From: Alphaproteobacteria bacterium
Lineage (GTDB): Bacteria; Pseudomonadota; Alphaproteobacteria; CAAHEQ01; UBA3637
DNA length: 19,539 nt
Reading direction: 5' to 3'
Assembly: GCA_045605805.1 (NCBI GenBank)
Contig: JAZUQR010000001.1
Coordinates: 1-19,539 of the forward strand
Shown: positions 2,844-6,222 of the stretch, piece by piece
Position numbering within the stretch: the first letter of the stretch is position 1
Layout: each line of letters opens with the position of its first letter
Notes under the pieces: model-generated
The model's input: the letters and a program-made list of their open reading frames with translations, nothing else
Database searches by the model: none
Told to the model about the DNA's origin: nothing
Position numbers and translations under genes: made by a program

Positions 2844-5417
2844 TTAGAAATTATACATTGCTTTCAGGTTCACTGTATGTGAATTATGTTCAGAACGCAA
2901 TTCTGTGACATAACTGGCCTTTAACGCCCAGTCCTTCAATGTTGCAGTTAATGACATACCTGCTTCAACAGCGGCACGACTTAAGCGTTCCCCTGTGATG
3001 GTGTAGCTTGTGGTACTGCCCACAACGCCAACGACTGCCGATGAGGCATCAGATTTGATATCATATGAACCTTGGACCCACAACTCTGGTGTCCACACTC
3101 CTTTATTGTCACAATTAAAGTCTTTGCTAAACTTTGTTCCCAAAAGCAATGTTGCAAGGTGCGTATCATCAGGCTTGACGGTGGTTAAACCATTGGTATA
3201 ATCGTCTGTTTTTACCAAGGTATATCTGGCACCAGCGATGGTGTCAAACAGCCCTTTTTGATATCCCCCCACTACCTGTGTGCTGTATGCATTGGCATCA
3301 TATTCAGAAGATAACAAAGATTCATCTTGATATGTTGTTCGGCTGTAATTAAACACAATGCTGGCATGCCATTCATTGGGTTGATATTGTCCATACAAGA
3401 ATACATTGTCACTGTCGGCTTGAATTTTCCGCTGAGTGTTTTTAACATCAGAACTTGCATAGCCATAGCCGAGACCAACAGTCCATTCTTTATTTAAGAC
3501 TGCATCAACGCCGGCCGCAAATCCTTTTGTGCTTGCGTCAAATCCCACTCCTTGTGAGTTATTTGTCTTGTTATACAAGCCTTGTATCCAAGGGGTCAAC
3601 TTCATATTTTTTAATGTTTCGCCGCCACTTAAACCTGCACGAGGCTTGTCAGAACTCAATACGGACAACCGATTTCCAACAGCCTTCATAACGGCTGTAT
3701 TGGTGGCAACGGTTTGTTGCACAGGGGCTTGTGTCGGATTGATTTTATCCGCAATATCAGCCGCTGCTTTTGTATCGCCTTGTTGCAGGGCTTGATGCAG
3801 CATTTGTTTTACTTGCTTGGCCTGATGTGTTGTGGGGGTAGATTGCTCTACAACCGCCACCGTTGTTGCGGCTTGGGTTGCATTCATATCACTGTTGGAA
3901 ACAACAGCTTGAATTGCCCCCTCTTTGGATTCAACATTCAATTTGCCGTTATCTAGCAAAGAGATGTTATACAACAAATTTTGGCTTAATGTGACATTTT
4001 CTTTGTTTATTATCGTGTTTGCTGTAATAAAATCATATTCTTTTGCTTCCATATCTTCCACAAGCACTGTTAAAGTGTTGTTCTGACCAAAGGTCACACT
4101 GTTGGCTTGAATTGTGGTTGCCATTGTTGGATTCAGAACGGTTTGTATTGTGGTATTGTCACCAAAGGTGATATTTGCTGTACCACGAATACCGGCATTT
4201 TTTATATCAATGGCAGCATTCTTTCCAACCGTTAAATTGTTGTTAAAGAGAACCGAACCTTGCCCATCCAATGTCAAGGTGGCATTATCACCCATTAGCA
4301 AGTTGTTCAGTTGGGTTTTGTTGTCGCCAGTTGCATTTAATGTGACGGTTCCTTGTGGGATTTCCACATCTTTGGCTGTGACATCTGTCAATGTTAAATG
4401 CGTTTTGACTGGTTTTGTATCAGCTTTGGATAAAAAGGGATAAAGGTTATATCTGTTCTGTTCAGATGGTGTTTTGCCATAGGCCCCATTATAGCCATAA
4501 AAATTTTGTATTGTAGCATTTTTTATTTCAGCATTGGACACCGATACAGTACTGAGCCCCTCCCCTCTTTGGCCACCTCCGGCATAGATATCCGAATTGA
4601 CCGTTAAGTTGCCGGAAGAACCATCCAATGTTAAATTACTTGTCGTCACAAACGAGGAGAGTTCTCTGCCTTCTGCTGTGGGGGCATGATTTATAGCCAT
4701 ATTTGCCAAACCGCCCATAAAGATACCTTCGTTAAATGTACCACCTGTAATTTTCATATTAGCTGTTTTAACAGAGGTGGTATGTTTATATCCTTTGACA
4801 TCTAAGGTACCATCGCTTCCATCGTATTCATCAACACCAGATCCGGCAAATACCGGCGCATCAAACTGACCCCCGTGGATGGTTAGGTTTGCTGTGGTGA
4901 TTTGAGAGTTTGTTTGCGCGTTTTCGGATGGTGCGGGCTTGGAACTGCCTTTTCCATATTTTGTGTAAGAACCAGCAAAGACACCATCAGAAAAATAACC
5001 ACCCGCATTGCCTAGAGTGCCTGTTAAACCACCGGATTGCACATTATTGATGGTGACATTTGTTGTATCTATACTGTACTTCCCAGTTTTATTATTCACA
5101 TAGTTGCCACCCACTATCCATTCTTGTGCTTCTCCACCATTGATGGTTAAATTTGTGGTGCCAACAGGCACATCACTGTCCACTGCAATATAATATGCCC
5201 CAATCAGTTTATCGTGCGTGCCATCTGTGTGCGTATAACTAAAATCTTTTTTTGCGGGGTTGGCTGTCGTTAGTTTTGTACTGCCTCCGTCACCATAGAC
5301 ATCGGCATAAGCTGGCACAGATACGAAACCGGCCAACACTAATCCATTCAGAATCATACATTTGATTAAAATAGATTTGTATTTAGACGATAATTCACGC
5401 AGTGTTGTTTTTGTCAT
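2844..5417 (-). CDS. Type Va autotransporter (outer-membrane beta-barrel plus beta-helical passenger), 857 aa
   Basis: ATG 5417 with AAAAGGAG SD. Long signal peptide MTKTTLRELSSKYKSILIKCMILNGLVLAGFVSVPAYA. G/T/N-rich passenger with IVGG/VFAGS/IFMGG/IYAGG repeats, linker GLSGGE. C-terminal ~250 aa of amphipathic strands (WIQGLYN, GFAAGVD, VGLGYGY) ending in F (MYNF). Confidence 0.92.
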   Translation of the reverse strand: MTKTTLRELSSKYKSILIKCMILNGLVLAGFVSVPAYADVYGDGGSTKLTTANPAKKDFSYTHTDGTHDKLIGAYYIAVDSDVPVGTTNLTINGGEAQEWIVGGNYVNNKTGKYSIDTTNVTINNVQSGGLTGTLGNAGGYFSDGVFAGSYTKYGKGSSKPAPSENAQTNSQITTANLTIHGGQFDAPVFAGSGVDEYDGSDGTLDVKGYKHTTSVKTANMKITGGTFNEGIFMGGLANMAINHAPTAEGRELSSFVTTSNLTLDGSSGNLTVNSDIYAGGGQRGEGLSTVSVSNAEIKNATIQNFYGYNGAYGKTPSEQNRYNLYPFLSKADTKPVKTHLTLTDVTAKDVEIPQGTVTLNATGDNKTQLNNLLMGDNATLTLDGQGSVLFNNNLTVGKNAAIDIKNAGIRGTANITFGDNTTIQTVLNPTMATTIQANSVTFGQNNTLTVLVEDMEAKEYDFITANTIINKENVTLSQNLLYNISLLDNGKLNVESKEGAIQAVVSNSDMNATQAATTVAVVEQSTPTTHQAKQVKQMLHQALQQGDTKAAADIADKINPTQAPVQQTVATNTAVMKAVGNRLSVLSSDKPRAGLSGGETLKNMKLTPWIQGLYNKTNNSQGVGFDASTKGFAAGVDAVLNKEWTVGLGYGYASSDVKNTQRKIQADSDNVFLYGQYQPNEWHASIVFNYSRTTYQDESLLSSEYDANAYSTQVVGGYQKGLFDTIAGARYTLVKTDDYTNGLTTVKPDDTHLATLLLGTKFSKDFNCDNKGVWTPELWVQGSYDIKSDASSAVVGVVGSTTSYTITGERLSRAAVEAGMSLTATLKDWALKASYVTELRSEHNSHTVNLKAMYNF

Positions 5418-5419
5418 TT

Positions 5420-5611
5420 TTATTTCTCCTTTTTTGTTATAAAAAACACCGGCCGATGGCATAATACCATCCGGTCGGTGTTCTTATGGTTTATCAAACA
5501 GCGGGCTGCGCCCCCTGTTATAAAGAATTGGCAATACCCCCCCCCCTGAACAATTTTTTCGTTATTTTTCAATGGGTTATCTTGGTTTAAGACCTGTAAT
5601 AAATGGGGCAT
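5420..5611 (-). CDS. Putative 63-aa leader peptide containing a G10 tract (regulatory uORF of the autotransporter)
   Basis: AAAGGAGG (5623-5616) 4 nt before ATG 5611. Reads MPHLLQVLNQDNPLKNNEKIVQGGGYCQF...FFITKKEK and stops at TAA 5422-5420, 2 nt before the autotransporter ATG. Confidence 0.6.
   Translation of the reverse strand: MPHLLQVLNQDNPLKNNEKIVQGGGYCQFFITGGAARCLINHKNTDRMVLCHRPVFFITKKEK
5441..5485 (-). terminator. Terminator-like hairpin (putative attenuator) in the autotransporter 5' leader
   Basis: Minus strand AACACCGACCGGATGG-TATTATG-CCATCGGCCGGTGTT, with one bulge and one mismatch, running into T6. It ends about 10 nt before the autotransporter SD, leaving no room for a promoter downstream of it. 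Confidence 0.7.
5537..5546 (-). repeat. Homopolymeric G10 tract (C10 on + strand), candidate slipped-strand contingency locus
   Basis: Directly read: gcaata-CCCCCCCCCC-tgaac. It is the longest G/C run I saw in this AT-rich window. Confidence 0.9.
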
Positions 5612-5631
5612 TTGCCCTCCTTTCACAAGTT

Positions 5632-5661
5632 AGGATAAACATATTTTAATGTATGTGTCAA
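5632..5661 (-). promoter_or_regulatory. Putative sigma70 promoter for leader plus autotransporter
   Basis: TTGACA (5661-5656, overlapping the yceD stop), 18 bp spacer, TATCCT (5637-5632). Predicted start near 5625, just upstream of the leader SD. Confidence 0.55.
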
Positions 5662-6167
5662 TCTTTTTTTAACATTTTTTTCAAGTTTGCAAATGGTTTT
5701 TGTTGGTTTTCTTCGTCTTCCACATAATCGCCCGACACATTGGGCTTTTTGGGGAATGGGTTCAAAAGCAGGCCAACTTGTTCCGATACGATATCAAAGA
5801 TATCCAAGCGTCCCCTGTCAATCGGTTCAATATCATCTTCCATTTCCCCTTCTTTTATCAAGGTGGCATTTTCGCAAAACAGGGCTTCAAAATCTTCGTC
5901 TATTTTATCTTCAAACAAATCCAATGAGACAACACACATCCGTTCCATTGTAGCCCACAGGTGACCGCTGACACGCACCAAGTCACCATCCATTTCTGCT
6001 TTGACCAGAGCCGTCACTTCTTTGACTTGCGGAATATCAAACCGATGGGCAATTTTTTCACACTGAGCCGGACTTGCCACCAATTTATCTTGCCACGGGT
6101 GAGCGCTTATTTCCCCCAAAAAGACGATTTTATTCAAGCCTTTTTCATTCTTTTTCATTTTTTCCAT
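5658..6167 (-). CDS. yceD: YceD / DUF177 family protein
   Basis: V-x-G-x-L-x-A...RMCVVSLD, acidic middle, LDIFDIVSEQVGLLLNPFPKKP and C-terminal KPFANLKKML. Divergent from bamE, as in alphaproteobacteria. Confidence 0.88.
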   Translation of the reverse strand: MEKMKKNEKGLNKIVFLGEISAHPWQDKLVASPAQCEKIAHRFDIPQVKEVTALVKAEMDGDLVRVSGHLWATMERMCVVSLDLFEDKIDEDFEALFCENATLIKEGEMEDDIEPIDRGRLDIFDIVSEQVGLLLNPFPKKPNVSGDYVEDEENQQKPFANLKKMLKKD

Positions 6168-6195
6168 TGACGAATGCCTTTCTTTTCTATATCAT
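6167..6195 (+). promoter_or_regulatory. Sigma70-type promoter for bamE-parE-cmk
   Basis: TTGACG (6167-6172), 17 bp spacer, TATCAT (6190-6195). Confidence 0.6.
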
Positions 6196-6222
6196 AACAG
6201 TATTATAACAAAAGGGTTTGAA

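Follow-up and report, generated by a model that had tools for sequence, protein, structure and literature searches.

A candidate phase-variable attenuator: poly-G leader cassettes in front of an autotransporter gene and other genes for surface and secreted proteins in a Gram-negative bacterium

The window analyzed here is a stretch of 19,539 nucleotides (nt) at the start of contig JAZUQR010000001.1 of a genome recorded as alphaproteobacterial (GenBank assembly GCA_045605805.1). It raises the question of how an autotransporter gene on the minus strand is expressed when a terminator-like hairpin stands directly in front of it and its leader contains a short open reading frame (ORF) with a run of ten G residues (G10). 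We describe how this leader is built, how many copies of it the genome contains, how far its layout is conserved, and how tract length varies from copy to copy. With moderate confidence we propose that the unit from promoter to hairpin, referred to as the cassette, acts as a phase-variable leader-ORF attenuator of the type described for the pil1 locus of Streptococcus gallolyticus, with a homopolymer as the repeat.

Read on the minus strand, the cassette starts with a promoter-like site (5632-5661) that agrees with the consensus at 10 of 12 positions and consists of TTGACA (5661-5656), an 18-nt spacer, and TATCCT (5637-5632). A Shine-Dalgarno (SD) sequence, AAAGGAGG (5616-5623), precedes the leader ORF (5420-5611), which in the present G10 frame comprises 63 codons plus a stop, from the ATG at 5611 to the TAA at 5422-5420. 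Just 5′ of the tract, the ORF contains a conserved 18-nt core (5555-5572) with stop codons in both non-leader frames, so that a single frame enters the tract. The G10 homopolymer itself, the proposed slippage site, occupies positions 5537-5546 within the leader ORF, 86 nt downstream of the −10 element and 120 nt upstream of the autotransporter ATG. It is immediately followed by TATTGC (5531-5536), a hexamer whose conservation emerged from a motif search of the genomes of the order. Next come a small GC-rich hairpin (~5499-5517), which the copies of this genome share with two relatives but which some cassettes lack, and an intrinsic-terminator-like element (5441-5480) composed of a hairpin (5480-5447) with a predicted folding energy of −17.9 kcal/mol and a run of six T residues (5446-5441). 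In the G10 frame the leader ORF runs through this terminator and ends 2 nt before the ATG of the autotransporter gene, whose own SD sequence, AGGAG, is located at 5426-5430. All elements that an earlier note on this DNA had listed for the leader were found at their positions on the minus strand.

The gene proposed to be regulated (2844-5417, ATG at 5417) encodes a protein of 857 amino acids with an autotransporter β-domain (PF03797) at residues 610-836 (E value, 1.3e-28; 100.9 bits versus a cut-off of 26). This C-terminal β-barrel translocator domain assigns the predicted product to the type Va autotransporters. The distance between the T-run and the autotransporter ATG is just 24 nt, too short for the gene to have a separate promoter. 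When the whole leader was folded, the predicted terminator hairpin was formed in the minimum-free-energy structure as well as in the centroid structure; the fold had a z-score of −4.37, and none of 200 shuffled sequences folded as well. A simple terminator scan of the region missed the large hairpin. The leader peptide did not match a family in a Pfam search. A known RNA family was also considered for the leader stretch and rejected: a search of positions 5200-5900 against Rfam gave no match above the gathering score, and three matches of ~20-22 bits were all far below their thresholds of 39-60 bits.

The present tract length is one of several that replication could produce, and changing it by single G residues in a script gave the three outcomes that had earlier been derived by hand. 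With G10, the leader stop lies 58 nt beyond the start of the 5′ arm of the hairpin, with G9 or G12 it lies 40 nt before the arm, and with G8 or G11 it lies 6 nt before the arm. The earlier note had classified G11 as OFF or intermediate. The stop position on which this was based was reproduced, but for G8 and G11 an ON-like state is more likely than OFF if S. gallolyticus is taken as a guide: strain 2475 of that species has a leader that stops right in front of the terminator, and it is highly piliated. It had also been suggested that the leader stop allows translational coupling to the autotransporter gene. The 2-nt gap between stop and ATG is real at this locus but is no conserved property: in 25 cassettes, the distance from the stop of the through frame to the ATG varies from −22 to +45 nt. 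The idea that such coupling is general to the cassette was therefore rejected.

The proposal that other genes might be preceded by the same leader was strongly borne out. When the genome to which the window belongs (1,212,651 bases on 31 contigs, 40.7% GC) was searched with the leader, strong matches with 86-99% identity were obtained on a dozen contigs, and alignment and motif searches together revealed at least 13 copies of the cassette in these 1.21 Mb. The 5′ half with promoter, SD sequence, ATG, and core is present on 13 contigs (C1, C3, C5, C6, C9, C11, C13, C14, C18, C21, C24, C30, and C31), and two orphan 3′ halves were found at the starts of contigs C20 and C25. Contigs C24 and C25 overlap by 89 nt without a mismatch and probably represent one locus. 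The 18-nt core occurs at 14 sites of the genome with at most one mismatch. TTGACA is found at the same place in nine other copies and also in the cassettes of relatives, and GGGAGG or AGGAGG is located 5′ of the leader ATG in other copies of the genome.

The length of the tract differs between the copies. G10 was found in C1, C3, C14, C20, C21, and C24/C25, G11 in C9, and G8 in C11. The copies in C3 (G10) and C9 (G11) are near-identical, with a single mismatch in 120 flanking nt. Long tracts are a property of the cassette within this genome, as eight G/C runs of at least 10 were observed where ~0.24 were expected and all eight lie inside cassettes; outside of cassettes, no G/C run of even 9 or more is present in the genome. 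In the case of C24/C25 (C24, 36695-36738; C25, 6716-6673), the core contains one extra A and a run of eight A residues directly precedes the G10 tract, and both of these adjacent homopolymers could shift the frame.

The cassette also marks the places where the assembly breaks. Of the 62 contig ends, 11 lie inside a cassette (C5, C6, C9, C13, C18, C20, C21, C24, C25, C30, and C31), and in C13, C18, and C30 the contig ends within the G-run itself. The cassette repeat is a main cause of the fragmentation of this assembly, and such repeats explain the assembly breaks of this lineage at these sites.

Diverged cassettes with the same layout were found in eight sister species (G004, G005, G008, G012, G013, G018, G019, and G020). 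In these relatives the parts follow one another in the order TTGACA promoter, ATG, conserved core, G8 to G11, TATTGC, hairpin, T-run, SD sequence, and ATG. A motif of at least seven G residues followed by TATTGC was detected in 14 of the 80 genomes of the order, which consists of a single family: in 10 of 21 genomes of the own genus, including the genome of the window, in 3 of 21 of a second genus, and in 1 of 10 of a third. The reversed control pattern gave two matches in all. Over dozens of loci in ten genomes, tract lengths between 8 and 13 were observed. Two relatives carry additional sequences within the cassette. Locus L032 (G020:C42) contains an extra insert of ~85 nt with its own inverted repeat between tract and terminator, as a result of which the early stops lie 110-120 nt before the terminator, and locus L023 (G013) carries a different, GC-rich palindromic insert.

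The collection of cassettes from this genome and its relatives allowed the frame model to be examined beyond the autotransporter locus. In all 26 cassettes that could be inspected for the entry side, exactly one frame leads into the tract without a stop, its ATG lying 64-104 nt upstream, and the other two frames are closed by the conserved core within 45 nt upstream of the tract. On the exit side, 24 of 25 cassettes with a terminator show one frame that stops inside or after the hairpin and two that stop before its 5′ arm; in the single exception two frames stop inside the hairpin. The through frame passes the whole hairpin and the T-run in 20 of the 25 cassettes and stops in the loop in the other 5. 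A hairpin followed by at least six T residues is present in all 25 despite differing stem sequences. In 23 cassettes, leader start and terminator are located on one contig, so that the current frame could be read: 3 of them, including the locus in the window, are in the through frame and 20 have an early stop, which in 19 of the 20 lies 25-120 nt before the arm. Most of the relatives' cassettes fell into one cluster in single-linkage clustering at 70%.

The properties of the cassette correspond to a switch that has been analyzed experimentally. Danne et al. (2014; PMC3894217) showed that the leader ORF before pil1 and pil3 of S. gallolyticus contains GCAGA repeats, which determine the position of the leader stop relative to a terminator located before these genes. 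In that study, expression was mostly low when the stop was at least 28 nt upstream of the hairpin and high when it was directly in front of the hairpin or farther downstream, and removal of either the ATG or the terminator abolished the switch. This bears out the pil1 precedent invoked by the earlier note, a repeat-containing leader peptide combined with a terminator; the experimental proof for this type of phase variation comes from one species and two pilus operons. The distances of 25-120 nt found here for early stops are close to the limit of at least 28 nt reported there for low expression.

On the level of sequence, the cassette has every feature of the pil1 design. Promoter, repeat-containing leader, intrinsic terminator, and genes for surface structures follow one another in the same order, and the number of repeats sets the position of the leader stop relative to the hairpin, which for the cassette is a prediction. 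The two systems differ in the repeat (13-23 GCAGA units in S. gallolyticus, a G8 to G11 homopolymer here), in the host (a Gram-positive wall versus an outer membrane), and in number and cargo (two pilus operons versus at least 13 cassettes in one genome, with varied cargo). In sequence, pil1/pil3 and the cassette are unrelated.

According to the proposed mechanism, the promoter would drive a short, well-initiated leader ORF that contains the slippage-prone G-run, and beyond the leader the transcript would meet an intrinsic terminator and then the ribosome binding site and start of a promoterless gene for a surface or secreted protein. Gain or loss of one G during replication would set the frame in which ribosomes leave the tract. 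In the ON state, a ribosome translating into or through the hairpin would block its formation, and RNA polymerase would continue into the gene. In the OFF or low state, in at least one other frame, the ribosome would stop 25-51 nt earlier, the hairpin would form, and most transcripts would end there. At the autotransporter locus, G10 would correspond to read-through, G9 and G12 are predicted to be OFF, and G8 and G11 are predicted to be ON-like or intermediate. In this scheme, it is predicted that the tract slips in vivo, that the leader is translated, that the hairpin terminates transcription, and that the gene is switched ON or OFF as a result.

The genes behind the cassettes are diverse. 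In the genome of the window, the cargo of C1 is the autotransporter, C3 and C20 encode Cys-rich proteins of 475 and 489 amino acids with a pilin-type N-terminus, and the cargo of C9 begins in the same way as these pilin-like proteins but is cut off after three codons. C11 encodes an LRR_6 protein (E value, 8e-20) and C14 a protein with a signal peptide. In the case of C25, the cassette is followed by an ORF of 15 codons (~6553-6506, minus strand) that contains a short C-run; this cargo gene may be disrupted or bear a second frameshift site. A Pfam search with 20 downstream proteins yielded LRR_6, in the C11 protein, as the sole significant family, and the others remained below the cut-offs. 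The label pilin-like refers to an N-terminal motif judged by eye, the N_methyl family having reached 16.9 bits in the downstream proteins versus a cut-off of 21.2. In the relatives, the cargo is mostly orphan and includes Cys-rich proteins with a signal peptide, pilin-like proteins, and proteins without a signal peptide. Across the cassettes, the T-run and the next ATG are separated by 20-48 nt and no conserved −35 element was found in front of the downstream gene, making a promoter of its own unlikely.

In several relatives the same tract is found in the opposite orientation. Together with flanks of ~60 nt, it lies inverted in the 5′ coding part of pilin-like genes in G014 (L020, at G014:C34 ~230-300, and L036, at G014:C73), in G022 (L049 and L067), and in G013 (L023, at G013:C24). 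In G014 and G022, it is positioned between the SD sequence with the ATG and the pilin-type N-terminus, and one tract length in three yields the full protein; the two copies in G014, with C12 and C10, are both out of frame in the assembly. Judged from this arrangement, the only role that the inverted in-gene tract can have is that of a frame switch. G013 possesses both the inverted arrangement and the leader-terminator cassette.

Several observations weigh against the attenuator. Concerning the promoter, similar matches are frequent in this AT-rich region (13 found versus 3.4 expected), and the −10 element is poor (TAAAAA or TAGAAA) in most copies of the genome; the call of a leader promoter rests mainly on the conservation of TTGACA across copies. 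Concerning initiation, the leader ATG of some relatives' cassettes (L029, L031, L032, and L039 in G008, G005, and G020; L018, L035, L041, L042, and L044 in G004 and G019) is located 6-7 nt after the −10 element and lacks an SD sequence, so that translation of these leaders would have to be leaderless. Concerning the frames, the 3 of 23 cassettes in the through frame are compatible with OFF as the default state but are no proof of it, and in a composition-preserving shuffle the pattern of one frame through and two before the hairpin was obtained with a P value of ~0.46 per cassette, the copies moreover being related. The frame layout fits the model but is on its own not significant. The conservation of the tract flanks in both orientations is not explained by attenuation.

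Public sequence data add to these points. The 24 runs considered are all stored as contigs, and those of X1, X2, X4, and X19 were aligned to positions 4900-6200. Contigs of the DNA runs X1, X2, and X4 cover both flanking genes and break inside the cassette. Tract indels of +1 (X1, X2, and X4) and −2 (X4) occur on pieces of 45-88 nt that are indistinguishable from paralogous copies. In the single RNA run, coverage is limited to 4900-5084 and 5730-5977, which are parts of the flanking genes. When metagenome contigs were searched with a core motif of 20 nt, 46 loci were returned, none of which carried a cassette. The tract lengths, finally, were taken from draft assemblies (10-140 contigs each), in which long G-runs are prone to error.

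The draft state of the genomes and the three contigs ending in the G-run could suggest that the tract-length differences are assembly or sequencing artefacts and that the real tract is fixed. We consider this highly improbable, as lengths from 8 to 13 were found at dozens of loci in ten genomes, single-base differences beside the tract also shift the frame between copies, and the conservation of the whole cassette would be left unexplained. The conserved flanks in both orientations hint at a function independent of the reading frame. The G-run might be a variable element of the 5′ untranslated region that acts without translation of the leader, either as the target of a C/U-rich small RNA or through an RNA structure that depends on tract length. 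The tract sits in the mRNA leader, and in the fold of the present copy, to which the z-score of −4.37 applies, the G-run pairs with a CCCC following the leader ATG; regulation via a G-repeat in a leader is described in PMC8295292. This C-run partner is not conserved, however: most copies lack CCCC after the ATG, and the relatives lack a C-run upstream or downstream. If the frame were not read, there would also be no explanation for the strong SD sequence and ATG, for the single entry frame seen in all 26 cassettes, or for the layout of the stop codons, and we regard such an element as an unlikely explanation.

Rather unlikely, too, is that the cassette is a duplicated promoter and 5′ untranslated region module that moves with the genes of an island, in which the hairpin would serve as a constitutive leaky terminator or RNA-stability element and the G-run would be a hypermutable passenger. 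The copies are 86-89% identical and lie at contig ends like any dispersed repeat, the frame statistics given above are compatible with chance, and the through frame is used by 3 of the 23 cassettes. In seven relatives (L010-L015 and L017), moreover, the yceD locus lacks both the autotransporter gene and the cassette and instead contains a likely rnpA followed by a yidD-like gene, both named by eye from their translations, which indicates that cassette and cargo are a lineage-specific insertion here. A passenger is difficult to reconcile with the confinement of G/C runs of at least 10 to cassettes and with the retention of G8 to G11 across species despite diverged surroundings; as long homopolymers decay when they are not under selection, this retention suggests that the tract is selected. 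The stems change, yet ATG, tract, hairpin, T-run, and SD sequence keep their arrangement. The good SD sequence and ATG, the conserved pre-tract peptide, and a conserved Tyr-Cys after the Gly run in the long frame would also suit a free-standing gene for a small protein of 57-65 amino acids with a terminator of its own, the downstream gene being expressed separately. The long frame is present in only 3 of 23 copies, however, beyond Tyr-Cys the peptide is not conserved from one species to another, the leader matches no Pfam family, and the 20-48 nt between T-run and ATG offer no space for a separate promoter, which makes a small-protein gene very unlikely. The phase-variable leader-ORF attenuator is the explanation that we favor.

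In the window, the upstream neighbor of the cassette on the minus strand, outside the cassette itself, is a YceD-family gene (5658-6167; PF02620; E value, 1.1e-8), whose stop codon is overlapped by the −35 element of the leader promoter; read-through from this gene could also feed the leader. Convergent to the autotransporter gene, positions 484-2799 of the plus strand encode a protein of 771 amino acids with BspA-type leucine-rich repeats (PF13306; E value, 1e-29), which is likely another surface protein of the same island. The autotransporter and a BamE-like neighbor indicate a host with an outer membrane, and a neighboring topoisomerase IV subunit points to Pseudomonadota but not to a particular class within it.

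In the simple-sequence contingency loci of Neisseria, Haemophilus, Campylobacter, and Helicobacter, the variable tract is located in the coding region or in the promoter spacer. The cassette shares with these classical loci a poly-G/C tract as a reversible mutational switch, as proposed here, on surface genes, and many loci per small genome. Unlike them, it carries the tract neither within the gene nor between the −35 and −10 elements, but in a separate upstream ORF, with a terminator between this ORF and the gene; the classical in-gene use of the same tract is seen in the relatives G014 and G022. In the trp and his leaders of Escherichia coli, formation of a terminator depends on where the ribosome stands within a leader ORF, which is the principle predicted for the cassette. 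The input of these attenuators is the supply of charged tRNA, sensed by a run of regulatory codons, whereas the cassette has no such codons and no evident alternative antiterminator hairpin in its fold, and its input would be a heritable frameshift. A further likeness exists to the RepG/tlpB system of Helicobacter pylori, in which a variable G-repeat in an mRNA leader tunes the downstream gene; there, a trans-acting small RNA acts on translation, while here a translated leader ORF and a terminator are predicted to be involved and no small RNA is known, no search aimed at one having been made. Full-text literature searches revealed no other printed case of phase variation by a leader repeat and a terminator, nor any in which a homopolymer lies within a leader ORF that precedes a terminator.

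Here, a Gram-negative gut bacterium shows the logic of pil1 in the form of a cassette that can be reused, placed before genes for an autotransporter, pilin-like proteins, a leucine-rich repeat protein, and many orphan secreted proteins. Random on-off switching of many surface genes is the probable effect of the cassette, which is a portable unit with which the organism probably varies the members of its set of surface proteins independently of one another. A broader proposal, plausible but more tentative, is that surface variation throughout this small-genome gut lineage makes use of one shared portable poly-G module of ~60 nt, serving as a leader attenuator in one orientation and as an in-gene frame switch of pilin-like genes in the other. 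With at least 13 independent loci in 1.2 Mb, this would be among the densest phase-variable sets known, and leader-ORF attenuation by homopolymer slippage would not be a streptococcal curiosity. If the cassette works in the proposed way, the expression of its cargo could not be read from the sequence or promoter of the cargo gene itself, and genome annotation as well as metagenomic strain analysis would have to include a score for the leader tract. In that case the cassette would also represent a compact, host-independent stochastic switch that could easily be tested with reporters.

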